Below are positions 863 through 21,436 of a DNA stretch of 32,000 nt, piece by piece. The translations under genes were made by a program, and so were the position numbers. The stretch is taken from NCBI GenBank assembly GCA_964480775.1, contig CAYZRF010000021.1, positions 1-32,000 of the forward strand, in the 5' to 3' direction. Within the stretch, counting starts at the first letter, position 1. Every line of letters starts with the position of its first letter. The notes below the pieces were generated by a model. That model was not told the DNA's origin. It saw only the letters and a list, made by a program, of their open reading frames with translations, and ran no database searches. This stretch comes from an uncultured Nitrososphaerota archaeon. Its GTDB lineage: Archaea; Korarchaeota; Korarchaeia; Korarchaeales; Korarchaeaceae.

Positions 863-1108
863 TTAATCCATTACGGACAAACCTTTAACCCCTAACTCAT
901 CCTTTACTTTTCTCTTAAGAACTCTTTCAATTCTTTCCACCCCAACCTCATTCGCATCTATTAGTTCTAAGAAGAGGCATGCTAACTTTTCTGCTGCCTC
1001 TTCAGCTATTGGATTAGTGATTCTTATCTCGCAAATCGCGGACTTCATTAACTCAGATAGCTTCTTTTTCGACTTCTCTCTTGAGGGCCTAAAAAATGGA
1101 AGGAGCAT
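863..1108 (-). CDS. hypothetical small helical protein (start uncertain)
   Basis: An ORF directly upstream of moaC on the same strand. The long 127-aa version runs into the divergent promoter, so I took the internal ATG (MLLPFF...). No motif recognised. Confidence 0.3.
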   Translation of the reverse strand: MLLPFFRPSREKSKKKLSELMKSAICEIRITNPIAEEAAEKLACLFLELIDANEVGVERIERVLKRKVKDELGVKGLSVMD

Positions 1109-1237: not shown

Positions 1238-1615
1238 TTGAACCAAACCATATCCTACGCAATAATCGGGACATTGGGCTTAGTTAGCTTAGTTGTATCC
1301 TTGCACGGCATCCAGCCATTTATCTCTGATATTGAAAGAAGAGTCGAAACTGGTTGTGTATACTCAGTTCTCAGTGCAATAAGCAACGTAGTCAATTCGG
1401 TTGTTGGTGGAGGGTCCGCTAGCGGAATAATATTTACTCCATTCCAAGTTAACCTTTCAGTTGTTGACAGAATCCTTTTTGCCAGTTGTGGCGATTACAG
1501 GGCAGATCTTGAATTTCCTTTCGAAATATCTCCATTAAATGCCTCAATAAGGGGGTTGGTCAGAATAAAGGCAACATGGTCTGAAAAGGGAGTTTCACTG
1601 GTGATTAAGGGATGA
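1238..1615 (+). CDS. hypothetical N-terminally anchored protein (locus 1 accessory operon, gene 1)
   Basis: 125-aa ORF with no ATG codon at all, so it needs a TTG start. It has one N-terminal hydrophobic helix (ISYAIIGTLGLVSLVVSL), and its stop overlaps the next start (ATGA). Confidence 0.5.
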   Translation: MNQTISYAIIGTLGLVSLVVSLHGIQPFISDIERRVETGCVYSVLSAISNVVNSVVGGGSASGIIFTPFQVNLSVVDRILFASCGDYRADLEFPFEISPLNASIRGLVRIKATWSEKGVSLVIKG

Positions 1616-1965
1616 ATGTAGAGATTGATGAAGCTTTAAGAACCTTAGTTTTTGTAGCATTACTCCTTGCTTCAGGGGCAATCTCCAATAGATTAGCATA
1701 CTTGAGAGTTAAGAACTTTGGATACAGACTAGCTTCTACCCTTACGGCCCTAAGCGAAAGATCAGTAAATCACAAAGTGGGTATAGCGCTAGAACTACCA
1801 GAGGGTAATTATTCCTTGATTTTCTTCGACAATGGTTCAGCTCTTTTCTCAATGAACGGGTACGAAATAGTTCTGAACGGCATTTCAACGGACTTAAGGG
1901 GGGAGATCCGAGGCGGGAAAGAATTACAGATTACAAGCAGAGGGGAGCTAATCCAAGATGGATGA
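1612..1965 (+). CDS. hypothetical pilin-like/anchored protein (gene 2)
   Basis: N-terminus MNVEIDEALRTLVFVALLLASG (an acidic residue, then a hydrophobic helix), followed by a beta-rich-looking C-terminal part. ATGA overlap with gene 1. Confidence 0.55.
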   Translation: MNVEIDEALRTLVFVALLLASGAISNRLAYLRVKNFGYRLASTLTALSERSVNHKVGIALELPEGNYSLIFFDNGSALFSMNGYEIVLNGISTDLRGEIRGGKELQITSRGELIQDG

Positions 1966-2059
1966 AGAAATTGCTGATGCAGTTTGGTTCATAATCGTGA
2001 TAGCAGCCCTAATACTAGCTATTTTGGCTAGCAACCCACCGCCCTCGCCAATAGGGTGA
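1958..2059 (+). CDS. possible 33-aa single-TM micro-protein (gene 3)
   Basis: Not in the ORF track because it is under 60 aa. ATG 1958 gives MDEEIADAVWFIIVIAALILAILASNPPPSPIG. It overlaps gene 2 by 8 nt, and its TGA overlaps the next start (GTGATG). Confidence 0.3.
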   Translation: MDEEIADAVWFIIVIAALILAILASNPPPSPIG

Positions 2060-2337
2060 TGAAGCTGAGGACAATTGCCTTTTTGATTGCCCTCTTGCTT
2101 TTATCTCTTCTAGTTATTGATCTTTCAATAAAGAGCATAGTTCCTTCTTGGGCAGTTAAGGCGAGAGAAGATATTGCTATTAGAACAGTCGAACTCTTTT
2201 GGAAGAAGGGTGTTCGACTCGTTTGGGAAGGAGGCTACAGAGAGAACCTCGATCCCTATGGATTAAGCGTTAAAATCAAAATTCCAGTGCCAAGCTCGCC
2301 AAATCAGATATGTGTTGAGATTTCATATAGGAGATGA
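2059..2337 (+). CDS. hypothetical N-terminally anchored protein (gene 4)
   Basis: MKLRTIAFLIALLLLSLLVIDL signal-anchor. The start is ATG 2059, or GTG 2056 as in the track. Confidence 0.5.
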   Translation: MKLRTIAFLIALLLLSLLVIDLSIKSIVPSWAVKAREDIAIRTVELFWKKGVRLVWEGGYRENLDPYGLSVKIKIPVPSSPNQICVEISYRR

Positions 2338-2341
2338 GAGC

Positions 2342-3331
2342 TTGAGAGAGGTTTTAGCTATCATAACGATTTTGATCTTGATACTTCCAACATTTATCGT
2401 CCCGGATACTAATATCTTGGATAGCAGAATAATTGATGCCGCTTTTGCGGAAAGTTCTGCATGGATGGAGTCCGAAATAGCCCTACCAAGATATCTCTCA
2501 TTCATTAGATGTCTGATAGATGAGTGGCTAGCCAATAACTATGGAAAGGATGTAGATCAAGTAAGACTTCCAAAGATCATAAATACAGAGGATTGGAAGA
2601 CATATGCCGAGAACGAAGCCAGGAGTAGGGGAATCATACTCTTTTGCAATGTAACGCCCGTAATATTGAGTAGGTCTTATGCAGCTAATGAACTACAAAA
2701 CAAGGTATTTGCTGGAGGATGTAAGCCAGGGGCTATAGGTGTGCAAAGTTCTTTATCCATCTTTGTAGTTTCGAAGAGGGGTTTTGCAGAAGCAGTCGCA
2801 AAGAGAAATTACTCTATTTCAGTTTGTCACCCCTGCCTCTATTTTCTAATAAAGGAAGCTCACAAAAAAATAGAAAAAGAGTTAGAAAACTTGATACCAG
2901 ACGAAACAGTAGTTGTTGGTGTGAGAAATGACTACATATCAGCAGTATTTCTGCTTAAATCCAAACTTTTAGATTTAGATAAGAAAATAGACGATCTTCT
3001 CACTTCATTAAAGAGAGAGTTCTCCTCAAAAGGAATAGAAATAGAATTCGACGTTAAGAGAGAAATTTCTATATCAAAAAGCGGAAATTCCGTGAGATTA
3101 ACTGTATCATACAAGTTTTACATAGAAGTCTGGGATAAAGAGGTTATTTATTGGGTTAGAGGCCTTCGAAAAGGCTGGTATTTGAAAAATGATCTCAAAT
3201 TGAAAGCCAAAATGTTGTGCAGGGTTCAAGAGGCGTTCAAAAGGATACCTACCAAAAATAGAGAGAAAGGACCTGAAAAAAGAGAGAAATCAAGGGAGAG
3301 GACAATACCTTGGCTAATACCGCCCAGATGA
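2342..3331 (+). CDS. hypothetical anchored protein with Lys/Arg/Glu-rich tail (gene 5)
   Basis: TTG 2342 lies 8 nt after AGGAG; the track uses GTG 2312. N-terminal helix LREVLAIITILILILPTF, then about 300 aa of soluble part ending KNREKGPEKREKSRER. No known motif recognised. Confidence 0.6.
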   Translation: MREVLAIITILILILPTFIVPDTNILDSRIIDAAFAESSAWMESEIALPRYLSFIRCLIDEWLANNYGKDVDQVRLPKIINTEDWKTYAENEARSRGIILFCNVTPVILSRSYAANELQNKVFAGGCKPGAIGVQSSLSIFVVSKRGFAEAVAKRNYSISVCHPCLYFLIKEAHKKIEKELENLIPDETVVVGVRNDYISAVFLLKSKLLDLDKKIDDLLTSLKREFSSKGIEIEFDVKREISISKSGNSVRLTVSYKFYIEVWDKEVIYWVRGLRKGWYLKNDLKLKAKMLCRVQEAFKRIPTKNREKGPEKREKSRERTIPWLIPPR

Positions 3332-3645
3332 GGATCATCCTTCTATTTAATGGCTTTAAAATATCAACCTATGATTGGTTCTTAGGATCAGAGACTATAT
3401 TCAATATTTTAAGGAGAATTCTAAAAAGCTTGCTTCTCGAAGTAGATAAAGGACTTCAATTCCTTAACAGAGTATTTACAGCTTTACTTCCAATTATATT
3501 CTTCATCTGGGTCCTGCTTTGGATCATGAACTTGGAGGAATTAAAAGGCCTTCAAAAATACATCAAGTGGTGGGTTCTATTCTGTTTTGTAATGATAAGC
3601 ATATCTCAAGGGCTTTCTTTCCTAATAAATGCGAAAATCGACTGA
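3328..3645 (+). CDS. hypothetical small membrane protein (gene 6)
   Basis: ATG 3328 overlaps the previous stop (ATGA). Two clear hydrophobic segments (LLPIIFFIWVLLWIM, WWVLFCFVMISI). Confidence 0.5.
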   Translation: MRIILLFNGFKISTYDWFLGSETIFNILRRILKSLLLEVDKGLQFLNRVFTALLPIIFFIWVLLWIMNLEELKGLQKYIKWWVLFCFVMISISQGLSFLINAKID

Positions 3646-4036
3646 GCTTTAGGTTTTTTATCAACTTTGGAAAGAGAACAATTGTAAAAGAAAACAAAAA
3701 ATAGTAGGAATGGAAATACCCCCTTCCTCTACTCAAACCAATGATGCAAGCAATAAACAAGATTTTTCCAAGGTCAAAGGAGGAAATAAGAGGGGAAATA
3801 GCAATAATGAACTTACAATCTCCGCCTCCAAAGCCAACGCCGTATAATGACAAAGCAAAAGGAATAGCAGCAAATATTCTAATGAAGACAGAAAAATGTG
3901 AATTTCTTAATAAAGAAAAGATGGAATTTAGAGAAAATAGGAATATATTCAATCTATTAGGTATCTTGCCTGTCTTGACATCTATCAGAGAACTCAACAA
4001 TGCTTCCAACATGGCTATAGCCATCATGAGCATCAT
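3563..4036 (-). CDS. minimal A24-family prepilin peptidase (TadV/CpaA-like)
   Basis: 157 aa and polytopic. It carries the two aspartate motifs of A24 peptidases: LIDVKTGKIPN and GFGGGDCKF. It follows the platform genes directly (TGA then ATG, 1-nt gap). Confidence 0.7.
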   Translation of the reverse strand: MMLMMAIAMLEALLSSLIDVKTGKIPNRLNIFLFSLNSIFSLLRNSHFSVFIRIFAAIPFALSLYGVGFGGGDCKFIIAISPLISSFDLGKILFIACIIGLSRGRGYFHSYYFLFSFTIVLFPKLIKNLKLSRFSHLLGKKALEICLSLQNRIEPTT

Positions 4037-4037: not shown

Positions 4038-4613
4038 TCACCCGAATAAATTGCTGAGTAAGAAAGTTGTCATCAGAAAAGGTATTGAATAGTACATTAG
4101 CCACTTTAGGCCCCTTTCCACTTCTTCCGCAATAAATACTGTAAAAGCAGCTCCGATTAATCCAAAAGACACGAAATTGCTGTGAGGCTTTCCAAGAAGC
4201 ATGTACCAAAGGAGTTCAGATATCTTCGAAAAGGCAGCTGACATGACTCCCAACATCATGATCAAGAACCTTGCTAAATTCCTTCTATTTTTCAAGAGAG
4301 CTGCTCTCTCGGCCTCCAGCTCTTCTACAACTCTCACAATGGATGCAGTGTCCCTAAGCACTCTACCGATAAATTCTGGCTCTGCTCCAGAGGTCAATAT
4401 TTCAGCTAACCAAGGACCATAATCTCCGAGAACGGTTTGGAGATTCACCATAATTTCTTCAATTGTTTTGTCGTCGGCAATAGCTTTCATAACGAGATTC
4501 TTGATTTCAGGGTCAAAGAGAGCAACTTGCCTCAGTGCAACGACTGGGTGTCGATTAAGTTCCAGTGAATCGGCTAGTGCCTCTATTATCACCGTTTTCG
4601 AAGTCTTTTCCAT
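4038..4613 (-). CDS. single-domain T2SSF platform protein (TadC-like half)
   Basis: 191 aa with a helical T2SSF-type cytoplasmic domain followed by TM segments. It has its own AGGAGG 8 nt before ATG 4613 and overlaps the upstream gene by 25 nt. Confidence 0.7.
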   Translation of the reverse strand: MEKTSKTVIIEALADSLELNRHPVVALRQVALFDPEIKNLVMKAIADDKTIEEIMVNLQTVLGDYGPWLAEILTSGAEPEFIGRVLRDTASIVRVVEELEAERAALLKNRRNLARFLIMMLGVMSAAFSKISELLWYMLLGKPHSNFVSFGLIGAAFTVFIAEEVERGLKWLMYYSIPFLMTTFLLSNLFG

Positions 4614-5089
4614 AACTTAAACCTCCTAAATGAATATCTGAAGATTGAAACCACGAATAGACAAATAGAGGTTGGACCGATAAGAGAGGAAGGTATTGTA
4701 CCGAGAGCAGAAGCGCTAGCCAATAGCATCATTGTTAAGAAAGCCATAGATAGTCGGATGGCCATTTTATGGTCAAGTTCCTTATTTTCAAGCTCTATTT
4801 CCACTCTCATGAAGTTCTTTAGGGTATTAACGATGTCTTGAGAGTTTGCCCCTTGAAGAAGGGATCTAATTGCCACAGCTAAAGGGCGATAACTCAATTG
4901 TTCACAAAATGCGTTTAATTTGCTCTGAAGAGTGTATCCTTCAACAGAGGAAGTAAGAAACATAGTTCTCATTTCTTTAGCGTAAGGTTCAAGTTTGGAC
5001 CTAGCTACAAGTTCAACGGCCTTAATCGGACTCCAAGTGAGTCCTAGAGAAAACAGCTGAATGAACCTCATAACTTGCTTTCGATCCAT
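4589..5089 (-). CDS. single-domain T2SSF platform protein (TadB-like half)
   Basis: 166 aa with the same helical-domain-plus-TM pattern. AGGGAG lies 7 nt before ATG 5089, and it overlaps the end of the ATPase gene by 22 nt. Confidence 0.7.
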   Translation of the reverse strand: MDRKQVMRFIQLFSLGLTWSPIKAVELVARSKLEPYAKEMRTMFLTSSVEGYTLQSKLNAFCEQLSYRPLAVAIRSLLQGANSQDIVNTLKNFMRVEIELENKELDHKMAIRLSMAFLTMMLLASASALGTIPSSLIGPTSICLFVVSIFRYSFRRFKLWKRLRKR

Positions 5090-6501
5090 GAAGTAGCTCC
5101 CTTTATCCTCTTGATAACTTCTTCATTGGTCTTCAAGTTCAGCGAAGATCTGATCATTGAGAGAAACCTCTCTGAGGGTTTTGGTTTTACCTCCTCCCAA
5201 CCACTATCCTCATACCTGTAGAGTTTTTCGGCAACCCTAAATTCCATAAACAACGTTAAACACCCCATTAGAGCATCTTCCATTCCCCATCTAAACCATT
5301 TCCTCTCCAACGAGACAGGATCCTTAGCATGCGTTGTTGCGATCACCCTGAATCCGCTTTCTTTTGCTAGAGCAAAGGCTTTAGCGTGTTCTTCTGTAAG
5401 AATTTCCCCTAAAAAGACTAAATCAGGATTTCTATGCAAAAAGGTGGTCACCACACTCTCCCTTTCACCAGGAAAGACGTAGGGATGATGTTTAAGGCCA
5501 TAACGAGAAAAATCTTCAATTTCCCTTACTTCCTCGATGCTTATGATCCTCCATTCCCTAGCGGAATATGCTAGAAGAGAGTTAGCTAGTGTGGTTTTGC
5601 CTACGCCCGTTCTTCCAACAATCATGATTGGCTGTCTTTCGTACATGGCTTGTACTAAATAGGCTGCAAGGCTTTCACTTATCGTCCCTAACGCTATTAA
5701 GCGCGACATTGGAAGTCTCGGCAAAGCAGAAAGATTTCTTGCGTCAAACGAAGGTTTTGATATTGGAGGAATGTCAACTCCAAGTCTAATCTTAGAGTCC
5801 TTAAAGGTAAACTCAATCTTTACGGTGGGTTGGTTGAGGTTAAGGGACCCATAGGGATGCAACTCCACTATCGTTCTAATCTTTTCAAACTCCCTCCTAT
5901 CTAGGATTAAATTGCTAATTTCAACCCTACCTGCCTCGATGTGATCTATGTATACCGGAGAACCCTCAAGGCCGTAGATCTCAGTTATATCATTGCCAGT
6001 TGCCAAGATAAGAATGGGCCAAGCCTTTGTAGATCTTACAGCTGCTTCTAAGATAATGTCATCTCTTAAAATCTTATTAGAGCCGAGTATCTTTTTTATC
6101 TGGTTCTTTCGAAAATTTATAACGTCCCAAAGATCGATTTCCAATGAATCTTCTGGATAAACTCCTTCCATTAACCTAGAGAGACCTATTGCAAAGATCA
6201 CACTTCCTGAACCGCAAATCCAGCTCTTGGGTATGAAATAAGTCCTTTTACCATTCATGCCAAGCATAGCACATCCGAGATCCTCTATTATTTCATCAAA
6301 ATGTATCTTTGGGGTTTTTAGAGGAGGATAGGGTACTTCCTTTACAAACGCAATGTGCTTCTCGCTTCCAAGTGCTGCCAACAATCTTGCCTTGTCGTAG
6401 GTCTGATAAGGACTGAGAAAAAGATCTAAGGAAAACTCCTCTACCCACTTTATAGCTGCATTTACGAATCTATGATATGAGTTCTCCTCGTTAAGGCCCA
6501 A
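5068..6501 (-). CDS. PilT-class type II/IV secretion ATPase (TadA/CpaF/EpdL-like)
   Basis: Walker A GRTGVGKTT, Asp box IISIEEVREI, Walker B PDLVFLGEI, His box VIATTHA. TTG start 9 nt after the pilin stop, preceded by GGGGTGA. Confidence 0.9.
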   Translation of the reverse strand: MGLNEENSYHRFVNAAIKWVEEFSLDLFLSPYQTYDKARLLAALGSEKHIAFVKEVPYPPLKTPKIHFDEIIEDLGCAMLGMNGKRTYFIPKSWICGSGSVIFAIGLSRLMEGVYPEDSLEIDLWDVINFRKNQIKKILGSNKILRDDIILEAAVRSTKAWPILILATGNDITEIYGLEGSPVYIDHIEAGRVEISNLILDRREFEKIRTIVELHPYGSLNLNQPTVKIEFTFKDSKIRLGVDIPPISKPSFDARNLSALPRLPMSRLIALGTISESLAAYLVQAMYERQPIMIVGRTGVGKTTLANSLLAYSAREWRIISIEEVREIEDFSRYGLKHHPYVFPGERESVVTTFLHRNPDLVFLGEILTEEHAKAFALAKESGFRVIATTHAKDPVSLERKWFRWGMEDALMGCLTLFMEFRVAEKLYRYEDSGWEEVKPKPSERFLSMIRSSLNLKTNEEVIKRIKGATSWIESKL

Positions 6502-6510: not shown

Positions 6511-6792
6511 TCACCCCGTGGTGAGGTTGCCTCTGGCTAAATTCTCACTTTCTGAGCCCCAGAGGCTGCTAAGATGTTCGCTTAACCAATCAATGAAATC
6601 CGAAAATTTCTCTTCAGTAAGATCCGGTAGATTCCACAAGAACTCCAAAGCGTTTGCTACAGGGTTTACAACAAGAGCGAAGAAAGCAGCTATGGTGGCA
6701 GCAATCAAAAGAGCAGTTTCTGTTGTCTGAGTTAAACCAGATTCATCCTCTAAAAAACCCTTGATGAATCTTTTAATTTTCTTAAACAGCAT
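6511..6792 (-). CDS. Flp-type prepilin (93 aa)
   Basis: ATG 6792 is preceded by GGAGGTGAAA. The leader junction KGFLEDESG/LTQTTETALLIAATIAAFFALV resembles bacterial Flp/PilA (FLKDESG/ATAIEYGLI). The 119-aa version in the track is a spurious 5' extension across the promoter. Confidence 0.7.
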   Translation of the reverse strand: MLFKKIKRFIKGFLEDESGLTQTTETALLIAATIAAFFALVVNPVANALEFLWNLPDLTEEKFSDFIDWLSEHLSSLWGSESENLARGNLTTG

Positions 6793-7064: not shown

Positions 7065-8225
7065 TCATCCAAAGCCTTCCAATACCAGAAGCATCCTATG
7101 GGCATCGGTTCTGGTAGCTTCAGAAGGGTTAATTGCTGCCCATATCAGTCTCTTTATCCCTTCTCCTTGAGGATCGCTAATTGAGCGAAGTTCATGCGGC
7201 CTTACTTCTAGAGATTTAGAAATAAGCCTAATAAACCAAGGAAATAGGGCCAAGATACAATTCTTAATGTCACCTGAATTTAAGAGATGTCTCGCTGCTC
7301 TAATTTCTTTAGATCCCTCTCTTCTTAACTTACTAACTAGTAAACAAAAAGAAAGATCTCTCAACGCAATTCCCAAAAAACCTATGGAGGAAATCAAAAA
7401 GAGAAAGGTGTTGAAGCACCCAGTTAAGACGGTGAATAGAGCAGATAAGATCAGCCTCTTTTTTGCTAATTGCTTCGATGTCTTAATTAGATCAAAAACA
7501 TCTAAATTTTCTACTTCTTTGCTTGGAATAGTTAGACGGCTTGATAACTTAAAAACCAAAAAAGGGCTGAGAAATAGGGCAAAAAAAGATAAATTTGTCT
7601 TCAAACGATAGATTAATGCAAAAACAGTAGAAGCTATGTTTAAACTAAATGCTATGTGGGAGAGTCTTATTTCTCCCTGGTAGCTCATATAACTAAGTAG
7701 AGGAATGCCAATAATTGATGAAAGTAGAAAATAGAAATTTGGAAAAGAAAAACTAACGACATTGAAGTCCCCCAAGAAAACTGCTATAGAAAATGTAACA
7801 GAACTAACTAGGGCCGAAATTGAAAGGTATTTTAGGAACGTAGGGAAGTTCTTTCTCTTCCCTATCTTCCGAGCTAGCAATAGGCTAACTGAATCACTGA
7901 AACCATACAACGAAGTCCATCCATACAGGAGCGCATGAATTGTTGATATAGAATTATCCAAATTCACAAAGGCTGGCAGATATAGAAACATCAGTACACC
8001 AGATATTCCAAGGCTTGTAAGACTTTGGAGATAAGAACATGCTCCTAGCATGGCCCCTAGAACACAAACGAGAAATAAACCTCCAAGATCGTCATAGGAC
8101 ACTTTTATCTGCCAAGCTAGACTATCCCCTATGCTTACTTCTCTTTTAAGTGCGCAAAAGTAGAGAGAGATTAACAGCACACCGTAAAGAATAGTTAAGA
8201 GATACAGGGCCTTATTTGGGTTCAA
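7065..8225 (-). CDS. hypothetical polytopic membrane protein with about 100-aa C-terminal soluble region
   Basis: 386 aa with many hydrophobic segments and a TTG start. It overlaps the stop of the ParA-like gene by 14 nt, which suggests co-translation. No motif recognised. Confidence 0.6.
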   Translation of the reverse strand: MNPNKALYLLTILYGVLLISLYFCALKREVSIGDSLAWQIKVSYDDLGGLFLVCVLGAMLGACSYLQSLTSLGISGVLMFLYLPAFVNLDNSISTIHALLYGWTSLYGFSDSVSLLLARKIGKRKNFPTFLKYLSISALVSSVTFSIAVFLGDFNVVSFSFPNFYFLLSSIIGIPLLSYMSYQGEIRLSHIAFSLNIASTVFALIYRLKTNLSFFALFLSPFLVFKLSSRLTIPSKEVENLDVFDLIKTSKQLAKKRLILSALFTVLTGCFNTFLFLISSIGFLGIALRDLSFCLLVSKLRREGSKEIRAARHLLNSGDIKNCILALFPWFIRLISKSLEVRPHELRSISDPQGEGIKRLIWAAINPSEATRTDAHRMLLVLEGFG

Positions 8226-9498
8226 TGAAATCCCTTCCCATGCCTTTGAGTTTTAGAAATGATAGTGCAAGATCCAAGAACATTCTATACTCTTGCGATA
8301 AGGATGAAATATCTAATTCCTGCCTAGCTGTCAAAGAGCTAGCTGTTTTCTCATCAAGACCCGCCAAAAGAAGTGCTTCCTTTAGATTTTTCCTCGTTAT
8401 GAATGCTTCCATTCCATCCGAGAACCTAAGTCTAACCTTTCTTCTAAAGAAAGGGAATAAATCAATGTGAAAACTAGAAGATTCTATCTCTCTGTAAATA
8501 TCTTTAGGAACTGGAACCTCTTTGGCCTGAACAATTCCCTTTATAGCTTCTAGTCGTGGATTGGTTTCTTCCAACAAATCACTGTACTGATTTGATAAAT
8601 AACCCTGTCCCGACGCGCCTAAGTCAATAGTTGGAACTTGATTATCAAAATTTCTTACAAAATGAAAGTCCTTACGAAATATCTTGATTAAATGCTTGGC
8701 CACACTCCTTTCTTTATAATCAATATCACCGTTGAAACCTTCAATTAGGGAGTGATAGAAAGTTGCCTCATGCATTCTTGAAAGTGAAATTGAACAACTT
8801 TGAATGCATCGAGAAAACGACTCATCAAAGGGCAATAAATAAGCAGGGACATTCCAATAAGTTTTTACTAGCTCTTGCAGTTCAGTTGATTGTAAATTAT
8901 GCCCATATTTGTTTATTATGACAAAAGGAGTCGAGAGATTGTTAATATCTAAAGAAAAAAGGTGTCTTTTTGTTTGAAGAATGGAATTTTTGTCTGGAAG
9001 CAAGACTGGGATTAGCAAACTGACCCATCTTGAGAGAGCCTTAAGCAGAACCCTTGCTGAGTAGTCCGATGATGGAAAATCTACTATGAGGAACTCAACA
9101 CCAATCTCGCGAATATATTCCTCTAAAGATCTTAGTCTAAGCAAAAGAAGATCAATTGGTTCGTACAACAGCGTCGAAACATCATCGCTTCCAGCAGGAA
9201 TTACTTTAAGCTTAATGAGATCAGAAAGTTTGCGCCTGATACTCGAGTCTTCGAGTGAAATCAACGGATCATATACTACTTCCTCAGGGAATTTATTCCC
9301 AAGTAAAACATCGTGAAGACCATGAAATCCCTCATTTCCAAGGAATAAGTACGTTAGATCGGCGTTATGTAGATTAGCATCCATAACCGCAGCCATCTTA
9401 CCCTCTTCTTCCATTAGATATGACATTATGAAGGATAGAGCCATGCTAACCGAGGTCTTACCAACCCCTTCGGTGCCAAAGAAACCTACTTTTAGCAT
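8212..9498 (-). CDS. ParA/MinD-family P-loop ATPase (TadZ/CpaE-like) with unknown C-terminal extension
   Basis: From ATG 9498 the protein opens MLKVGFFGTEGVGKTS, with the P-loop at the extreme N-terminus as in MinD/ParA. LIVDFPSS is a Walker B-like strand. The last 190 aa or so are unrecognised. The track's TTG 9573 start would overlap moaA. Confidence 0.7.
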   Translation of the reverse strand: MLKVGFFGTEGVGKTSVSMALSFIMSYLMEEEGKMAAVMDANLHNADLTYLFLGNEGFHGLHDVLLGNKFPEEVVYDPLISLEDSSIRRKLSDLIKLKVIPAGSDDVSTLLYEPIDLLLLRLRSLEEYIREIGVEFLIVDFPSSDYSARVLLKALSRWVSLLIPVLLPDKNSILQTKRHLFSLDINNLSTPFVIINKYGHNLQSTELQELVKTYWNVPAYLLPFDESFSRCIQSCSISLSRMHEATFYHSLIEGFNGDIDYKERSVAKHLIKIFRKDFHFVRNFDNQVPTIDLGASGQGYLSNQYSDLLEETNPRLEAIKGIVQAKEVPVPKDIYREIESSSFHIDLFPFFRRKVRLRFSDGMEAFITRKNLKEALLLAGLDEKTASSLTARQELDISSLSQEYRMFLDLALSFLKLKGMGRDFIEPK

Positions 9499-9539
9499 TA
9501 ACCCATCAATATGATGAACGCCTGTCTCAAAGACCCTAT

Positions 9540-10502
9540 TTAAGGAGATCTTGCCAGCGCAGTTTTCGGACAATGGGCTTCTGTGGACTTAAAGTAAGGT
9601 TCTCTTTGTGCAACAGCTCTTAATAAGGAGTTGACAACTCCGCCCCAGCTTCCTGATCTAAGTTCCTTTAGAAACTTAACAGGAGGTTTACTGGAAAGAA
9701 GGCATGTTTTAAAAGCGCCAAAATGAGTGACTCTAATTTTAGTGCAGTGATAGCAGAAATCAGGATTGCTCATAGACCTTACAAGCTCAACCTTAACATC
9801 TCCTAGGTCATATACTGGCCTATCGTGCATATCTTGACGTATTTTAATCGAAATTGCCTTTTCCTTTATTCTTTCCTCCAGCTCATGGAAATCTACGCCG
9901 TATTTCCTAAGAAGAGGGGAGTTTGGATCTCTATCTTGTAGTTCAATTAGCTGGACGTCAGCACCTATGTTAGCCGCAAACTCGATCAAAGAATCGAGTT
10001 CTCCTTCATTTAACCCCCTTAACATGACGCGGTTAATTTTAAGACGTTTTATACCGAACGATATAGATTTTTCTATCCCCCTCAACACCTTTTCGAGGCT
10101 ATCTACACCAGTAATTCTTTGATAAACCTCCTTTTTCAAGGATGGGAGGTTTACGTTGACCCTGTCGAGACCAGCTTCAATTAAGCCTTGAATTCTTTCC
10201 TCCAGAAGGGTTCCGTTTGTAGTGAGTCCTATGTCCTTTATGCCCTCAACCCTCCTGATCTGAGCTACTATCTCACTCAGATCTTCTCTAAGGAGGGGCT
10301 CACCCCCAGTCAGCTTTATTGTTCTGACGCCAAAGTCAGCAAGGATGGCAACGAGTCTACCAATGTCCTCAGGAGTCATTATTTCATTTTCTTCGTTATG
10401 ATAGCCCTCAGCATGGCAAAAGAAGCATCTTAGATTGCATTCATGGTTAACTGAGATCCTCAAGTTGAGCAGAGGCCTGTCATAGGGGTCTCTGAGTATC
10501 AT
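9540..10502 (-). CDS. moaA: GTP 3',8-cyclase MoaA (radical SAM)
   Basis: CNLRCFFCH radical-SAM cluster motif, a TIM-barrel-like body and C-terminal Cys residues (CYHC...C) for the second cluster. Confidence 0.92.
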   Translation of the reverse strand: MILRDPYDRPLLNLRISVNHECNLRCFFCHAEGYHNEENEIMTPEDIGRLVAILADFGVRTIKLTGGEPLLREDLSEIVAQIRRVEGIKDIGLTTNGTLLEERIQGLIEAGLDRVNVNLPSLKKEVYQRITGVDSLEKVLRGIEKSISFGIKRLKINRVMLRGLNEGELDSLIEFAANIGADVQLIELQDRDPNSPLLRKYGVDFHELEERIKEKAISIKIRQDMHDRPVYDLGDVKVELVRSMSNPDFCYHCTKIRVTHFGAFKTCLLSSKPPVKFLKELRSGSWGGVVNSLLRAVAQREPYFKSTEAHCPKTALARSP

Positions 10503-10560
10503 GACGAATTGCCAACTATGTCATATCGAATTTAATAATAACTCTTACCTTTTACGAAGG

Positions 10561-11100
10561 ATGGAAAGCCCAGTCCATGAACATAGAGCCAAATCCCCTC
10601 ATAGATTGAGATATGCCGTTTATACGGTTAGCTCCTCTAGATATAAAGCGATAAAAGAAGGAAGAGACTTTACTGATCCTACTGGAGACTTAGCAGTGAA
10701 GTTGATAGAATCGGCTGGAAACTCAGTTGTCATAAGGAAAGTACTTCCTGACGAGAAATCATCAATAAGACGCGAGTTAGAGAGTGCTCTAAAAGAAGCA
10801 GACGTCATCATTCTGTGTGGTGGAACTGGATTACATCCAGAAGACGTAACTGTCGAGGCCGCAAGCGGAATATTTGAGAAAGAAATACGGGGCTTTGGCG
10901 AGCTATTTAGGCATCTTAGCTTTCAAAGCATCGGATCTGCTGCTATGTTAAGCAGAGCAACAGCGGGAATTTGTAGGGGAAAGGCGATTTTCTGTCTTCC
11001 AGGATCAACGAAGGGAGTAGAGCTAGCCCTCAAGAAACTTATCCTGCCAGAGGCTGGGCACATAATTTGGGTTGCTAGAGGGTATAAGAACGGTTCTTGA
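10561..11100 (+). CDS. moaB: molybdenum cofactor biosynthesis protein MoaB/MogA family
   Basis: CGGTGLHPEDVT...GFGELFR...LSRATAG...CLPGS blocks. ATG 10561 is preferred; the track's 10501 start overlaps the moaA start codon. Confidence 0.85.
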   Translation: MESPVHEHRAKSPHRLRYAVYTVSSSRYKAIKEGRDFTDPTGDLAVKLIESAGNSVVIRKVLPDEKSSIRRELESALKEADVIILCGGTGLHPEDVTVEAASGIFEKEIRGFGELFRHLSFQSIGSAAMLSRATAGICRGKAIFCLPGSTKGVELALKKLILPEAGHIIWVARGYKNGS

Positions 11101-11103
11101 ATT

Positions 11104-13080
11104 CTAACCTAGAAAAAAACCAATATCATCGCCAACAACATATCCAGGCATGTTAGAGAGCTTATTTTTGAAGTCATCAGATTTGAGAACCTGAAGAAAC
11201 AGCTTAACAGAGCGTTTATCCAATCTGTCCATCCTTACAAGGAAATCGTACCTCTCAGTAGTTAGAGGAATGAAATCCAACCCTTTAATCCTTGCTACAT
11301 ACTCTATTCCAAGGCCTACGTCTGCTTCTCCTCTTGCCACGGCCTCAGCAACACCAGAGTGAGTTTTCCTCTCGAATCCATACCCGTTTATACGCTCTTT
11401 TAGCGTCTCAACTGAAATACCCTTCTCTGCAGCCAACCTAGCGATGAAGTAATCCAAAAGTATCCTTGTTCCAGAGCCTCTATTCCTGTTCACAAACCTT
11501 ACGTCGTTCCTCAACAAGTCCTCTATCCTGCTAATTCCTTTGGGATTTCCTTTTGCAACAATTAATCCTTGAACGCGTTCGTACCCTCTAACGAGCTTTG
11601 CTACGCCCTTTAAAGAGTAATCCTCCAAGAATCCAACGTTGTACTCACCTGTCCTAGGATTCAGCGCATGAACCCCTGAGATGTCTGCCTCTCCAGCCCT
11701 AATAGCTTCAAAACCTCCCAGAGATCCAACGTTCACGCGGACTATCCTTAGATTTTCCTTTTTCTTGAGCATTGAGAGGAGAAGTTCAGCTCCTGGGCAG
11801 TGACTTCCTATGAATCCAAGATCTGCAGGTCTAACCCCTTCCTGAAAAGGAATGACGAGGACCTTTTCTCCTCTTTCTACGTATTCCACATTCTCTGATA
11901 TTTCTACATATCCGTCTGCCCTGCTGAGAGTTGATATAGCCTCAGATCCTGTAGGTATTGGAAAAGCCAATATCTCTCCCTTCGCATCTGACAGCAAAGC
12001 AACGGGGAGGAAGTTCCTCCTCCCAAGAGTGGAGCGCACTCTCCTTCCCATCTTTGCTTTTATCGGAACTTGCTCCAAGGTCTTAATTCCAGCCATTTTC
12101 CTCACTAAAGGAGATACAAACTTTCTATAGGCAATGAGCGCGCTTGTTGGATATCCTGGCAACCCAATTACGAACTTATTTCCGATAACACCGAGAATAA
12201 AGGGCTTTCCTGGTTTCATAGCCACGCCATGAACGAGTACCCCAGGTTTTCCCGCTTTGTCTATCGCTTTATACACTACATCACCAGCCCCAGCACTTGT
12301 ACTTCCAGATACGAGAACTAGATCAGCCCACTTGAGAGCTCCCTTTATTTCACCTAAGATAGACTCTAGGTCGTCTGGTAATATCCCTAGAACCTTTGGC
12401 TCTCCTCCATCCTGCCAAACAGATGTTGAAATAGTGTATGAGTTTATGTCATAGATCTTACCGTAATCCAATGGATTTCCAGGAGCAACGAGCTCGTCTC
12501 CTGTGCTAAGAATGGCCACAACAGGTTTCTTTACCACTTTTACTTTCGTTCTCCCTATGGCTGCTAGCAATCCTATCTCCCTGGGACCTAGAATGCTGCC
12601 GGAGTGCAATAGGGTTTCTCCTGCAGCCACATCAGTACCCGTGCCCTGAATATTGGCTCCTGGTGCAACAGATTTGAAAATAAGGAGGAGATCTCCCTTA
12701 ACTTCTGTTCTCTCCACTAGGACAACCGCATTTGCTCCTGGAGGAATAACGGCTCCTGTAGCTATCTCAACCGCTTCTCCCTCAGAGACCACACCTTTAA
12801 AGGGCTTTCCAGCCTCTGCAATGCCTATAATCCTTAAAGTTACGGGGTTCTCCTCGTCCGCGCCGAAGGTGTCCTCTGCCTTCAGGGCATATCCATCGTA
12901 CATGGCCCTATCGAATGAGGGGACATCCACCTCTGAAGGAATGTCCTCTGCAAGCACCCTACCAACGGCATCCTTGATAGGTACATCCTCTGATTTAGGG
13001 ACATAGGAGTAATGCCTTTCTATTAAGCGAGAAACCTCTTCAACGGAAACTAGCTTTCTAAACTCTTTTCTCTCTCCCAT
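11104..13080 (-). CDS. moeA: molybdopterin molybdo/tungsto-transferase MoeA fused to a C-terminal PBP-like binding domain
   Basis: The N-terminal 410 aa or so are MoeA ([35 protein letters not shown]). The C-terminal 230 aa or so resemble periplasmic-binding-protein-like domains. This fusion is known in archaea. Confidence 0.9.
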
Positions 13081-13089
13081 ATAGATCCC

Positions 13090-14376
13090 TCAGAGCGTGC
13101 TTAATTCTGAAACATTCGTAGATATGTAGCGCTTGAATGGGAGAACCTCTACGATCTCTCCCTCCTTATACCCCTCTACATCCTCAGGTACGATGAGAAA
13201 TGCGTCCGCTTTTACCAATGAACTTGCAATTCCAGCACCGGAGATCCTAACAGGGATTGCCAACCACTCATTTCCACTTCTCTTAAGCTTGACTCTAGCG
13301 AAATGCAAAATTCCTGGTCTTGAAGGTACCTTGCCCACAAGCCTAGCCCTAAGGGTGTTTATCATCCTCTCACCCTTAATCCCAAGAAATCTCTCAATTA
13401 AGGGGACAAGAAATAGCAATGCAGCTACGGCAGCAGATACAGGATAGCCTGGAAGACCTATAAATGGCTTCCCATTTGAAAGAACTGAAAGCAGGGTAGG
13501 TTTCCCAGGCATAACCCCTACTCCATGAACGATTATCTTTGCTCCAAGTTTTTCAAGAGCATCTGGAACGAAATCGGATGTTCCAACGCTGGTTCCTCCG
13601 CTCGTTAGGATGACATCTGCCTCCTTGCACTCGCTTATTCTCCTTGCGAGTTCATCTGCATCATCGTCTACAATTCCCTTGTAAGAAAAGAGACCCCCGT
13701 GTTCCTCTACAATTCCTTTAACGAGCCATCTGTTGGAATTCACAATTTTTCCTGGGGCTTCCTTATCTCCTACCTCAATTAACTCATGTCCCGTGCTTAT
13801 CATGCCAATAACAGGCTTCTTACGAACCAAAACCTCTTTTTTGTTGATAGAAGCTAGCAAACCTAGTTCAAAGGCCCCTATTATGGTTCCCTTTGGGAGC
13901 AGGACTTCACCTGCCCTGATGTCCTCACCCCTCCTTGAAACGTTCCGGAACGGCGGAACTTGTTCATAGATTCTGACCATTCCACCACTTTCCTCAGAAT
14001 TCTCCACCTCTACAACCGCATCGGCCCCTTTTGGCAAGACTGCCCCAGTGTGGATCCTTACAGCCTCTCCAGCCCTGACTTCCAAGCTTATCTCCCTGCC
14101 AGCTTGAATTTCTCCAATGACTCTGAGTGCAATTGGAGAATGTTGGGATGCTCCGTATGTATCCTCAGCCCTGACGGCGTATCCGTCCATAGCTGCCCTG
14201 TCAAACGGCGGAACATCTTCTTGAGCTCTTATATCTTCAGCTAAAACCCTGTCTAGGGCATAATCTAGCCCTACGTACTCAGCCTCGGTGGGCTTTAGGT
14301 CAAGAGAACTCATGAAAGTTTCCAGAGCTTCTCTTACCTTCATGATCGTTCTGAAACCCTTCCATTTGTGGGACAT
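13090..14376 (-). CDS. moeA: molybdopterin molybdo/tungsto-transferase MoeA (stand-alone paralog)
   Basis: [29 protein letters not shown] and GLPGYP. The N-terminus aligns with that of the paralog (KGFRTIM vs KEFRKLV). Confidence 0.9.
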
Positions 14377-14429
14377 CTTGGAACATTTGCGAGTGCACTT
14401 ATTACGTTTGATGTATTTATCATACTGAG

Positions 14430-15185
14430 ATGAAAGGAGGAACAGGTGGTGTTCTTACAACCAGAGATCTTATTAGATACGATAGACAACTTCTGATCAT
14501 TGGTAAGGCTGGCCAGGAGAAACTAAAGAGAGCATCCGTTGCAATAGTGGGAATAGGTGGGTTGGGTAGCCCGGCTGCTTTCTACCTTGCTGGGGCTGGG
14601 GTGGGAAGGCTGATATTGATAGATCCTGAGAGACCAGAGCTGAGCAATTTGAACAGACAAATAATACATTGGGAAGGCGATTTTTCTCTTCCCAAAGCCC
14701 AGTCTGCCGCAGAGAAATTGAGAAAATTCAATTCTGACATCGTTATAGAGCCTAAATCAGTCAAAATTACAAAAGAAAACGTTTCAGAAGTCTTAAGTGG
14801 GGTAGATGTGGTTGTTGATGGACTTGACAACTTCGAGACAAGGTACCTCCTCAATGAGTACTGTTTGGAGCACGGAAAGCCATTTGTACACGCAGCAGTT
14901 AGGGGGTTGGTTGGTCAGGCAACGACAATCGTACCTCAAAGATCTCCATGCTTAAGGTGCATTTTTCCAGAGCCTCCAAAAGCTGAGAAAAAATTCCCGA
15001 TTTTGGGGGCAACAGCAGGAACTCTCGGCTGTATTGAAGCGTTAGAAACGATTAAACTGATAACTGGCTTTGGGAGACCTCTGACAGGGAGACTTCTCAT
15101 AATAGACCTTGAGGACATGACTTTTAACCTGATAGGGGTGAAGAGGCGGCCAGACTGTCCCGTGTGTGGAGGCCTCCATAGTTAG
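14430..15185 (+). CDS. moeB: ThiF/MoeB/UbaA-family E1-like adenylyltransferase
   Basis: RYDRQL...VGIGGLGSP nucleotide-binding fold and two CxxC pairs (CLRC, CPVC). It sits next to moeA and moaB. Confidence 0.85.
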   Translation: MKGGTGGVLTTRDLIRYDRQLLIIGKAGQEKLKRASVAIVGIGGLGSPAAFYLAGAGVGRLILIDPERPELSNLNRQIIHWEGDFSLPKAQSAAEKLRKFNSDIVIEPKSVKITKENVSEVLSGVDVVVDGLDNFETRYLLNEYCLEHGKPFVHAAVRGLVGQATTIVPQRSPCLRCIFPEPPKAEKKFPILGATAGTLGCIEALETIKLITGFGRPLTGRLLIIDLEDMTFNLIGVKRRPDCPVCGGLHS

Positions 15186-17211: not shown

Positions 17212-17493
17212 ATGTTAAGGAGCAAGGTTTTAGAGGCAATAAAAGAGTTTAACGAATTTAGAAGTCCAGAGGCAACAGCAAACTCGTTTTAATTAAAGAT
17301 AATAGGATTATCGTTAGGATGAATGGAACCTATTGTAGAACATGTGGCCTCTATGATTACTTTGAGGATCTTTCATGGAAAATCAAGGGATTACTTGAAA
17401 GCTAACGTAAAGATTCTGTCGACGAGAAGAATAGATCATTTCTCCTATGAAATCATATATGAGGTGGAATCTCTTAGTAAAAGATCTAAATGA
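17212..17493 (+). pseudogene. small gene apparently disrupted by two compensating frameshifts
   Basis: Frame A runs 17212-17292 (MLRSKVLEAIKEFNEFRSPEATANSF, then stop). The -1 frame from 17280 to 17405 reads KLVLIKDNRIIVRMNGTYCRTCGLYDYFEDLSWKIKGLLES. Frame A resumes around 17389 and runs to 17493 (DYLKANVKILSTRRIDHFSYEIIYEVESLSKRSK). Confidence 0.35.
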
Positions 17494-19084
17494 GAAGCAT
17501 CACCGCAAACGCAAGCAGAGAGAATATGAAAATCTCTCTAAAGGACGAGGTAAAGTGTCCTGTTCTAACAAGCCCCAAGGTTCCTCCCATCACTAACGTC
17601 TGAACAAAGGCTTGCATCATAATTCCTTCTCTGATTCTCTCTGCTTCATGAGGTGCGAGAAGAGGGATGTTTAGTATGTTCACTAACATGGCATAGGAAC
17701 CTATAACTAGCATGAAAGAAAACATTGCAGTAAAGTAATTTCCCATTTTCTCGCCCTCCGTTTCGATCCAGAGTTCCCTCAACCTAACGGCAAATTCTGA
17801 AATTGATGAAAAAGCCTCCTTAAGATCGGCTCCAGCCTCCAAAGCGGTCATAATAAGCAAAGTTGACATTCTCGAAACGCTTAGCTTTTGCCTCTCAGCC
17901 ATCCTCTTTAGAATTTCAGTATAAGGAAGTTTCAGTCCAGCCCAAGCCTTGACCCTGTTGGCGAAATCCTTCAAGGATTTGTATGTTATCTTCATGTATG
18001 TTATAGCGTCGCTAAAAGACCTTCCACTCCTTAGTTCAGAGAAGAGATCTTGAAGGAAAAGTGGGAAGTCAAAAGTCTCGCTTCTCAGCCTTTTTTCCTC
18101 CTTAAATATTTGCAAGAAGCCAGCTAAAGCCCCAAGGGAGGTAGAGATGGCTAATCTTTGCCACAGATTGAGAGAAAGAATTGGAATCGGGGATTTAATC
18201 AGCTTTACCAAAATTCGTGGGGGTAACTTATGAATTAGAACTGTAAAAATAAAATATACAGCAAAGAAAACGGCAATAAAAGATAACCAGGCTTTTATGA
18301 CGGTTCTTTTCTTAAAATAGAAGTACCTAGGGGCTAGAATCTTAAACAACAATACGAAGAAAGGAGATGGGAGTACTGAAGTCATAAGGACAAGGTTGCT
18401 CATTCCTCCTCCTCCGAATCCAGAGACCAAAGACTGAAACGTGAACATCAACATCAACACAAATGGGAGGGCGGTGGACGTCAGAGTATAAACGATTAGG
18501 ATCATCATCAGTCTTTCCATGCTACTTCTTACGTCCATCATGGTTTTCTCTACTGACTCATCAAGTTCCAGCTTTAGCATTTCATCTATGGCTTCTCCTC
18601 TAGTGAAGTAGTAATCGTGCAGTCTCGAGTAGATTCTTTTCCATACGCCACTAGGACATAGCCTGATGTTTGCCTCAAGCCCTTCTATTGTTCCAGCAGC
18701 TAACATTCTAGCTGATGCTGCTTGAAAATACTTTCTCACGTCAGTATCCTCTGCTATGTTACTAATCGCCTTGAATGAAGAGCCTAAAGATTTGCCCACC
18801 TTTTGTAACATCCAGAGAGTAGCTAGATAAGCCCAGATATCCTTTTCAAGCTTGCTAGCTATATTCAGATAGGATAGAAAAGGGGTAAATAGCATTAACA
18901 GTGATGGAAAGATCACTATGAACATAAGACGTACAGGATCCCTCATATAGCCAGTACGATAAAGAGCAGCAGCTATAGCCATCATAACGCCTCCAACGGA
19001 GGCGATTCTAAAGATAAACTCCTTCGGATCTTGGTCTGGTATCCCTGCTTTTATGAAGAACTCTTCATCGAAGAAGAGTACCAC
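17486..19084 (-). CDS. two-domain T2SSF platform membrane protein (FlaJ/TadC-like)
   Basis: 532 aa, with two helical cytoplasmic domains each followed by TM bundles. Its GTG start overlaps the ATPase stop by 1 nt. Confidence 0.8.
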   Translation of the reverse strand: MVLFFDEEFFIKAGIPDQDPKEFIFRIASVGGVMMAIAAALYRTGYMRDPVRLMFIVIFPSLLMLFTPFLSYLNIASKLEKDIWAYLATLWMLQKVGKSLGSSFKAISNIAEDTDVRKYFQAASARMLAAGTIEGLEANIRLCPSGVWKRIYSRLHDYYFTRGEAIDEMLKLELDESVEKTMMDVRSSMERLMMILIVYTLTSTALPFVLMLMFTFQSLVSGFGGGGMSNLVLMTSVLPSPFFVLLFKILAPRYFYFKKRTVIKAWLSFIAVFFAVYFIFTVLIHKLPPRILVKLIKSPIPILSLNLWQRLAISTSLGALAGFLQIFKEEKRLRSETFDFPLFLQDLFSELRSGRSFSDAITYMKITYKSLKDFANRVKAWAGLKLPYTEILKRMAERQKLSVSRMSTLLIMTALEAGADLKEAFSSISEFAVRLRELWIETEGEKMGNYFTAMFSFMLVIGSYAMLVNILNIPLLAPHEAERIREGIMMQAFVQTLVMGGTLGLVRTGHFTSSFREIFIFSLLAFAVMLLI

Positions 19085-20499: not shown

Positions 20500-20761
20500 C
20501 TACTCCCATAATGTGATAGACCGGGTTGATTTAGATTATTGAACAAATAAAATGCTGTGGATCAACATTAAAATCTACCTATGTTTACTAGAAATTACTT
20601 ATATTTTACAAAATATGATAAAGAAATTCTAGATAAAAGCCAGAAACAGTTGATTCTAGTAGAAAACAATTCATATAGAATTTTTTGGTTAAATTAACTT
20701 ATTTTTAAGTTTTCCAAATAGATGGTGATCTTTGATAAGTAAAAAATGAAACCTAAGTAAG

Positions 20762-20799
20762 AAAAGATAAAAAAGAGATGAAAGGAGGGCCTACCCTCC
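20762..20799 (-). terminator. hairpin plus oligo-U terminator after pilin gene 1
   Basis: The minus strand reads GGAGGG-UAGG-CCCUCC, a 6-bp stem with the stop codon in the loop (20784-20799). It is followed by UUUCAUCUCUUUUUUAUCUUUUC, with the T6 run at 20769-20774. Confidence 0.4.
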
Positions 20800-21240: not shown

Positions 21241-21290
21241 ATCCCACACCTTCTATTCTTTTGTTGACCATGTAGTATACTAATGGAGAG

Positions 21291-21343: not shown

Positions 21344-21436
21344 TTTTTCTAAACACATCAAACTTTAAAATTAAAGCATTAGAGCGTTTTTCCTTTTATC
21401 CAAGAATTTGGAATTTTTTCAAATTAGAAACTGTTT

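Follow-up and report, generated by a model that had tools for sequence, protein, structure and literature searches.

Bacterial Tad pili are thought to have descended from an archaeal Epd-like system, and the accessory parts of archaeal Tad relatives are, to our knowledge, almost unknown. Here, a stretch of 32,000 nucleotides (nt) from an uncultured Nitrososphaerota archaeon (assembly GCA_964480775.1, contig CAYZRF010000021.1, positions 1 to 32,000; hereafter the window) was analyzed, which GTDB assigns to the lineage Korarchaeota; Korarchaeia; Korarchaeales; Korarchaeaceae. The window DNA is archaeal and holds two separate type IV pilus loci and a molybdenum-cofactor gene set. Our subject is a block of six chained open reading frames (ORFs) on its plus strand, p1 to p6 (1238-3645), together with p0, a gene that diverges from the block, all lying beside a Tad-like core with an Flp-like pilin. 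We propose, with moderate confidence, that the block and p0 constitute an accessory module of an archaeal Tad/Epd-like Flp pilus, consisting of leaderless pseudopilin-like primers and a membrane-anchored base or collar.

The block resembles the TadE/TadF/TadG set of bacterial Tad systems (CpaJ/K/L in Caulobacter) in combining small one-helix proteins with one larger membrane-anchored protein. In both systems these are encoded with Flp, a TadV-like peptidase, TadA, TadB/C, and TadZ-like genes, and the N terminus of p1 looks to be built like that of the cognate Flp. In contrast to the bacterial proteins, those of the block have no leader, no Gly(-1) site, no TadE/TadG Pfam signal, and no vWA domain; their acidic residue lies at +6 or +7 or is absent; a two-transmembrane (2-TM) protein and a 33-amino-acid (aa) protein are added; and the host is an archaeon without a secretin. 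In archaea, the clade-1 (Epd; system 1, EpdA-D) and Epd-like-Tad layout comprises a split platform, a dedicated peptidase, a MinD/TadZ-like ATPase, a short pilin, and many accessory proteins (PMC4858521, PMC6668835), and clade-1 loci encode at least five minor pilins along with additional membrane proteins (PMC4858521). The core layout of the window appears to match these descriptions by Makarova et al. and Denise et al., including the short pilin without a globular domain and a set of at least five accessory proteins with N-terminal anchors (PMC4858521, PMC6668835). Whereas Epd minor pilins carry class III signal peptides processed by EppA, the block proteins carry none and show no sequence similarity to them, and the block occurs in a TACK/Korarchaeota-like lineage rather than in methanogens or Thermococci.

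Two further systems offer partial likenesses. FlaF of the archaellum is an unprocessed archaellin-like monotopic protein (PMC4425475), and FlaF/FlaG share with the block proteins a monotopic design, a pilin- or archaellin-like N-terminal helix, the lack of a signal peptide, encoding in the operon of the machine, and a pseudoperiplasmic location, which is presumed for the block (PMC4425475). However, no homology to Arch_flagellin, FlaF, or FlaG is found in the block, and its partner is an Flp pilus rather than a rotary archaellum. The GspH-I-J-K pseudopilins of type II secretion and type IV pilus systems show a similar size pattern, with three small members beside a larger one of about 330 aa, and a priming role is plausible for the block; GspK is large and without Glu5, while p5 gave no GspK-like or other pilin fold in Foldseek, has a basic signal anchor, and is fused to p6 in one genome. 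For crenarchaeal type IV pilus loci, Makarova et al. described accessory proteins that could not be traced and conjectured that these are minor pilins (PMC4858521), so that proteins of this kind are already known. What is new here is the seven specific families, a p5 fold unmatched in PDB and BFVD, and a leaderless pilin-like design in register with the mature pilin; the phrase "leaderless pilin" was absent among the matches listed in a full-text literature search.

The six-gene block and its divergent neighbor

The six ORFs and their junctions were reproduced at exactly the coordinates given in a preliminary description of this DNA. They comprise p1 (1238-1615; 125 aa; TTG start), p2 (1612-1965; 117 aa; ATG start, ATGA overlap with p1), p3 (1958-2059; 33 aa; ATG start, 8-nt overlap with p2), p4 (2059-2337; 92 aa; ATG start within a TGATG junction, with an alternative GTG at 2056), p5 (2342-3331; 329 aa; TTG start after a 4-nt gap from p4), and p6 (3328-3645; 105 aa; ATG start, ATGA overlap with p5). 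The gene callers of a public collection gave p1, p2, and p4 these exact starts, the p5 start was fixed at TTG by alignment of homologues (MRE[VI]LAI), and a TAA stop three codons ahead of the p1 start leaves no room for a longer p1 frame. The preliminary description had several ORFs starting at TTG or GTG and no ATG anywhere in p1; TTG starts apply to p1 and p5, the rest all beginning with ATG, and p1 is free of ATG in frame but contains three out-of-frame ATG triplets. Its helix pattern was borne out by hydropathy, which gives one N-terminal segment in each of p1 to p5 and only internal segments in p6 (two, at residues of about 45-72 and 83-100 on the Kyte-Doolittle scale). The acidic residue said often to precede the helix is present in p2, p3, and p5 but not in p1 or p4, and the charged tail described for p5 is a charged stretch at residues 305-320 (nt 3254-3301) that is followed by TIPWLIPPR and is therefore not terminal.

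DNA fetched around homologues gave a series of homologous loci, numbered from L001, which were compared by blastp and hidden Markov models (HMMs). All six ORFs are found in the same order in four close relatives (L001-L004) at 51-78% identity, and this order of all six is kept in a more distant clade (L005) at 27-45% identity and in the GC-rich Korarchaeota contigs L006-L008. Recurrence in distant GC-rich loci is at 27-47% identity, and the block is found in at least seven archaeal lineages. By Nei-Gojobori counts, the ratio of nonsynonymous to synonymous substitutions (dN/dS) is 0.07-0.29 for all six ORFs, with the proportion of nonsynonymous differences (pN) well under that of synonymous differences (pS). 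Ordered homologues for every ORF, including the 33-aa p3, and a pN well below pS are far beyond chance; the six ORFs are real, conserved genes under purifying selection. Their nearest named homologues come from metagenome-assembled genomes (MAGs) labeled by NCBI as Thermoproteota or Candidatus Korarchaeota and are all annotated as hypothetical.

A seventh gene, overlooked by the preliminary description, completes the unit. This gene, p0 (863-1108, minus strand, 81 aa, with its start placed at MLLPFF by alignment), is divergent from the block, and p0 and p1 to p6 form one seven-gene unit. Homologues of p0 adjoin the block in L001-L003, L005, and L008 (34-70% identity), lying in L008 on the strand of p1 and overlapping it. 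The p0 protein is soluble, helical, and charged, with no hydrophobic segment, has a dN/dS of 0.09-0.19, and had no match in Pfam, NCBIfam, or PDB sequences; it is probably a cytoplasmic partner or regulator of the module. In the divergent region between p0 and p1, two AT-rich boxes on the plus strand, GAAAATTATTA at 1180-1190 and GAAATAT at 1205-1211, are invariant in an alignment of four relatives while their flanks vary. They are candidate archaeal TATA elements with a presumed promoter function, and the second box, lying about 30 nt before the p1 TTG, would imply a near-leaderless p1 mRNA. A scan for bacterial sigma-70 promoters and terminators was set aside because the host is archaeal.

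The preliminary description had tied the six ORFs to the adjacent pilus genes, and in line with this, of the seven lineages whose context is usable, six have the block next to a Tad/Epd-like core or an Flp gene. It converges on the genes for an A24 peptidase, TadC, TadB, an ATPase, and Flp in the window clade, L005, and Korarchaeota L006-L008. In the Korarchaeota loci, the peptidase gene and the block are separated by an inserted TFIIB-like gene (L006 12614-13420; L008 12746-13579), which fits the association of TFIIB with archaeal type IV pilus loci reported by Makarova et al. (PMC4858521). A different arrangement is seen in L017 (Thermoproteota), L020 (Nitrososphaerota), and L022, where homologues of p1 and p5 are co-directional with, and directly downstream of, genes for the ATPase, a fused TadBC, and Flp-like proteins. 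In L095, the p2-p6 genes converge on an Flp gene carrying a KRKG|ISGTIEQ signal. The block of L014 adjoins a gene for a CARDB-domain protein, and the contig stops 900 nt further on. Adjacency in six of seven lineages, in three arrangements and with otherwise different neighbors, is good evidence that the block is functionally linked to the pilus core.

Architecture of the block proteins

The six ORFs represent six separate families, of which only p2 and p3 are alike, and only at the N terminus (hhalign P = 9.7e-5). As the preliminary description had found from the letters alone, none belongs to a recognized family: Pfam and NCBIfam gave nothing above noise for p1 to p6 or their distant homologues (weak DUF7261 and DUF7317 matches had E of about 0.08), none of the six matched PDB sequences, and profile searches of PDB sequences with p1, p2, p4, p5, and p0 were blank. 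Curated pilin models (Pfam TadE, Flp_Fap, Pilin_N, Arch_flagellin, and others) matched none of the window proteins or distant homologues at E ≤ 1. A hydrophobic N-terminal helix of about 20 residues is present in p1 to p5 by hydropathy; it begins 1 to 10 residues past Met1 and is not preceded by a site of charged residue and Gly/Ala. The class III signal peptides to be expected of minor pilins are missing, since none of p1 to p6 has such a leader or a Gly(-1) cleavage site, and p1 to p6 are thus not canonical prepilins. Conserved sequons are found in the C-terminal parts of p1, p2, and p5.

In p1, an N-terminal helix (MNQTISYAIIG...) is combined with an invariant GGG motif and a beta-rich C-terminal part, and dN/dS is 0.07-0.14. 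The p1 HMM found matches in L010, L014, L017, L020, and L022 with E-values of 1e-11 to 1e-13. When the Flp and p1 families were aligned by hhalign (P = 4.2e-4, a modest value), Met1 of p1 fell on Flp +1, the first residue past the cleavage Gly. Distant p1 homologues (MEEVVEY, MKGSLER, MILSIER, and MINSLEK) all have Glu6, like mature Flp, and that of L010 also has Tyr7; by locus, residue 6 is Ser in the window clade and L005, Ala in L008, and Glu in L010, L014, L020, and L022. Of 3351 ORF N termini searched with an HMM of the mature Flp N terminus, the best non-Flp matches were p1 of L022 (E = 3e-5), L017, and L020. Judged by these alignments, p1 looks like a pilin at its N terminus, in register with mature Flp. 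A single-sequence AlphaFold2 (AF2) model of p1 was unusable, with a predicted local distance difference test score (pLDDT) of 40, and drew the helix at residues 5-23. For p1 and p2, the positive-inside rule gave no clear answer over the set of homologues and was not used.

The N-terminal helix of p2 contains an invariant Glu7 (xxLREAL-type motif) and its C-terminal part is beta rich; two N-x-S sequons are kept in close relatives, and dN/dS is 0.09-0.19. The mini-protein p3 consists of an acidic N terminus, one hydrophobic helix, and a Pro-rich tail. It is kept in eight loci, Korarchaeota included (40-79% identity), and is also found in L095, with a pN of 0.17-0.23 against a pS of 0.62-0.76. 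The protein p4 pairs a small ectodomain with a basic signal-anchor N terminus (MKLR...) and carries an invariant P-x-W and LVW motif (dN/dS, 0.15-0.29); homologues occur in L005, L006, L008, and L014. A dPPR10 match of p4 proved to be a repeat artifact, with no stretch passing the threshold. Compared with Flp by hhalign, p2 to p5 gave P > 0.01, and the N termini of p4 and p5 are unlike Flp (P > 0.1).

The largest protein, p5, has a conserved M-[RK]-E N terminus (Glu3), a transmembrane helix, an alpha/beta ectodomain of about 280 aa, and a basic C-terminal tail that is predicted to be disordered and is lacking in distant homologues. Its dN/dS is 0.11-0.15. Members of the family are very few: of 5.8 billion clusters, 15 were found by a word-seeded search, and of 1.84 billion representative proteins, eight were found as relatives by exhaustive HMMER profile searching. 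An AF2 model from a 14-sequence alignment (pLDDT, 84.6; predicted template modeling score, 0.76) places the N-terminal helix at residues 2-19 and leads from this transmembrane helix through long helices packed on long beta-hairpins to the disordered tail. Foldseek searches with this model found nothing at E ≤ 1e-3 among 350,542 PDB chains (best template modeling [TM] score, 0.16) and no credible match in BFVD (best TM score, 0.19), and the model shows no recognizable pilin or ferredoxin-like fold of the kind seen in GspK/PilX minor pilins or PilN/PilO alignment proteins. Low-probability Foldseek matches to a kinesin, CD1, an NTF2-like protein, and a single-stranded RNA phage maturation protein, all with TM scores below 0.2, were rejected. 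An enzymatic role, considered on account of C57, H163, and H174, which are invariant in the close family, was rejected as well, as these residues are lost in the distant homologues P0067-P0071; p5 is therefore read as structural.

In p6, an amphipathic N-terminal region precedes a 2-TM hairpin (dN/dS, 0.12-0.15). In L003, p6 is fused to the C terminus of p5 in a single 436-aa ORF (P0004, L003 10001-11311), and the p6 homologues of L005 and L014 begin with a segment resembling a signal peptide, which suggests that the N-terminal region of p6 may be extracellular, consistent with the p5-p6 fusion. Fusion and signal-like segment alike would also agree with a p5 ectodomain on the outside of the cell. 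The 3' end of p6 overlaps that of the A24 peptidase gene by 83 nt (3563-3645), an overlap shared by L002. It is created by a C-terminal extension of the peptidase of about 23 residues that is found only in the window and L002, other homologues stopping near residue 130. The basic signal-anchor N termini of p4 and p5, and the fusion of the 2-TM p6 to p5 in one relative, suggest that p4, p5, and p6 are more likely membrane resident than parts of the filament.

The Tad/Epd-like core and neighboring loci

The minus-strand genes that run toward the block encode a Tad/Epd-like system of divergent sequence. Nearest the block lies an A24 prepilin peptidase (TadV/EppA-like; 3563-4036; 157 aa; Pfam Peptidase_A24 E = 8.5e-11) with the Asp motifs DVKTGKIPN and GFGGGD; it is short, without a methyltransferase domain, and together with a T2SSE ATPase it places the locus among those classed as Tad/Epd-like. 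Next to it, two small polytopic proteins of 191 and 166 aa (4038-5089) are read as a split TadC/TadB-like platform. Neither had any Pfam match, T2SSF included, but each corresponds to one half (C- or N-terminal) of fused proteins of 306-313 aa in L018 and L020, of which the L020 protein has a weak T2SSF match (E = 0.034), and the two weakly resemble each other (P = 3.5e-4). The TadA-like secretion ATPase (5068-6501) matches Pfam T2SSE with E = 2e-12. Bacterial loci found by an ATPase scan contained no Flp-motif ORFs, leaving their Tad identity unconfirmed, and no closeness of the ATPase to CpaF is claimed. Beyond the pilin gene, a 386-aa polytopic membrane protein and a ParA/MinD-like (TadZ-like) ATPase with a weak CbiA match below the Pfam cutoff (E = 0.0014) are encoded at 7065-9573, and the synteny of this pair is kept in L002, L003, L006, and L008.

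The Flp-like major pilin (6511-6792, minus strand) has a leader ending in ...FLEDESG, followed by the mature N terminus LTQTTETALLIAATIAAFF. Different lineages share its processing site, DESG|LTQTTETALLIAA, as well as a mature length of about 70 aa, and among them the leader and mature N terminus are near-invariant (...F[LI]xDE[SR]G|[LV]TQT[TV]E.ALLIAAT). The Flp homologue of L006 has a weak match to Pfam Flp_Fap, below the cutoff (E = 0.036). In three loci, the presumed major Flp-like pilin itself appears to be leaderless (L017 2864-3190, L020 10977-11261, and L022 1736-1939, all on the minus strand), starting MQQTIETILL... or MINTLEVIIL..., with Met at +1 and Glu at +6; that of L020 has no possible upstream start. 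An A24 peptidase gene was not found in the fetched flanks of these three loci. The homology between leaderless and leader-bearing Flp is weak (E = 0.011), with positional support. Small proteins of Heimdallarchaeota (L027-L029, about 8095-8325, plus strand), from loci picked up by the ATPase alignment, also matched the Flp HMM, with E-values of 2e-5 to 1e-2, and Flp-type pilins may therefore reach the Asgard archaea.

Other features of these loci were recorded alongside. Large secreted CARDB/Ig-like proteins, possibly adhesins, are encoded in relatives, one or two each, inside the pilus locus or next to it (L002 7188-9814, L004 5421-8005, L014 7409-8824, and L020 5883-7958); the window has no such protein between the genes for Flp and the 386-aa membrane protein. 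The pilus locus of the window lies between molybdenum-cofactor genes (394-849 and 9540-15185), which encode MoaC, MoaA, MoaB, two MoeA, and a ThiF/MoeB-like protein, and in L010 (5021-8842) the block keeps MoaB/MoeA neighbors and not the Tad core. A second type IV pilus locus occupies 17486-26512 of the window, with a T2SSF protein of 532 aa, a T2SSE ATPase of 471 aa, two pilins of 152 and 176 aa, and an A24 peptidase with an archaeal type II C terminus. It has its own unannotated N-terminally anchored proteins of 146, 163, 346, 163, and 330 aa, several of which are leaderless too (MEVVESVV..., MDEMVSEPIEV...); the 330-aa protein contains the run GGGGGGGGGDEGGEG.

Proposed roles of the module and alternative readings

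For the accessory module proposed above, we infer membrane topology, assembly roles, and interacting partners as follows. The protein p1, and probably p2 and p3, would be leaderless pseudopilin-like subunits, with the initiator Met standing where the +1 residue of cleaved Flp sits. With Met1 at +1, p1 to p3 would join the TadB/TadC platform without cleavage by TadV and may prime the Flp filament or sit at its base. The proteins p4 and p5, fixed by signal anchors at their N termini and exposing their ectodomains beyond the membrane, would join the 2-TM p6 in a collar that resides in the membrane and links the machine with the cell envelope; in function, this collar would be analogous to archaellar FlaF/FlaG or to bacterial alignment or TadG-type components. 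The soluble p0 would act as a cytoplasmic partner.

Several observations weigh against this proposal. No homology links the block to the pilin, TadE/F/G, FlaF/G, or PilN/O families. The hhalign P-values are modest and open to inflation by transmembrane-helix composition, and p1 of the window has Ser6 in place of Glu6 and does not score significantly against the HMM of the Flp N terminus. The p5-p6 fusion of L003 could be an assembly frameshift rather than a genuine fusion. In L010/L011, analogues of p1 to p5 adjoin MoaB and MoeA, 4.7 kb from an unrelated FlaI/FlaJ-type pair, while the genes for the Tad-like ATPase, the peptidase, and Flp lie about 150 kb away on the same contig, and the related Tad-like ATPase/TadBC loci L015, L016, L018, and L019 have no recognizable block.

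The preliminary description had suggested that the six proteins are minor pilins, pseudopilins, or assembly factors in the place of TadE/F/G. The first part of this suggestion finds support in the pilin-like N terminus of p1 and is set back by the missing leaders and missing pilin-family homology; for the last part, homology to TadE, TadF, and TadG was undetectable. An alternative reading would make all of p1 to p5 minor pilins of the filament tip, with p5 as an adhesin, a set standing in for TadE/TadF/TadG or GspH-K that is extracted from the membrane and caps the Flp pilus. The number and size of the proteins would fit, several being small and one reaching about 330 aa, with a single N-terminal helix in each, as would the resemblance of p1 to Flp and the linkage of the block to the core. 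Tip-most minor pilins (GspK/PilX) lack the Glu, and so does p1 of the window. We nevertheless regard a tip complex as unlikely, as p4 and p5 have basic signal-anchor N termini unlike that of Flp, the L003 fusion would tether p5 by three transmembrane helices, no vWA or adhesin domain was detected, and the p5 model, checked against known folds, matches neither GspK nor any other minor pilin or alignment protein.

Conversely, none of the block proteins might be a filament subunit, and all might belong to a monotopic anchor or stator complex of the FlaF/FlaG type that fixes the machine in the S-layer or pseudoperiplasm. The absence of class III signal peptides, an argument also used for FlaF (PMC4425475), agrees with this, as do a predicted N-terminal anchor followed by a beta-rich domain in all of them and the sequons conserved in the C-terminal parts of p1, p2, and p5. 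However, Arch_flagellin, FlaF, and FlaG were not matched; the leaderless start of the presumed major Flp of L017, L020, and L022 implies that a missing leader does not exclude polymerization in this system; and a simple anchor would not need the in-register similarity of p1 to mature Flp. An exclusively anchoring role is therefore quite improbable in our judgment.

It is harder still to credit that the block is a membrane operon unrelated to the pilus, serving envelope or S-layer biogenesis or tied to the molybdenum cofactor, whose position beside the pilus genes is inherited synteny. The L010/L011 arrangement beside MoaB and MoeA, about 150 kb away from the Tad-like core, speaks for it, as do the molybdenum-cofactor genes that also flank the block in the window and the lack of any domain that would tie the block to a pilus. 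Against it, adjacency to the core or Flp outlives three rearrangements across Korarchaeota, Thermoproteota, and Nitrososphaerota MAGs in which the other flanks differ, and the L010 genome still encodes a Tad-like ATPase, peptidase, and Flp; we consider this reading very improbable. Finally, the idea that some or all of the ORFs, above all the 33-aa p3, are merely chance ORFs, to which the TTG starts, very short lengths, and lack of any matching database family might lend color, is ruled out by amino acids conserved despite very different GC content, by the kept gene order, and by a pN far below pS for each ORF.

Collectively, these findings favor the accessory module of leaderless primers and a membrane-anchored collar. 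A bolder extension of it, which we advance only tentatively and consider doubtful, is that this archaeal Tad-like lineage assembles pilin subunits that are never processed and whose initiator Met is the mature +1 residue. In the window, such unprocessed subunits would be the accessory proteins p1 to p3, standing beside a conventionally processed Flp; in L017, L020, and L022, even the presumed major Flp-like pilin would be one of them. If this extension is true, the lineage would run a type IV filament machine with no need for a prepilin peptidase, and the seven-gene module, p5 included, would be the dedicated priming and anchoring apparatus of such a machine.

The module comprises seven unannotated and extremely rare families and has yet been kept with an Flp-type pilus across several TACK lineages. 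If its leaderless subunits truly polymerize, they would form an exception to the requirement of type IV filament subunits for a prepilin peptidase, and the system would provide a simple natural test case for the actual purpose of the leader.

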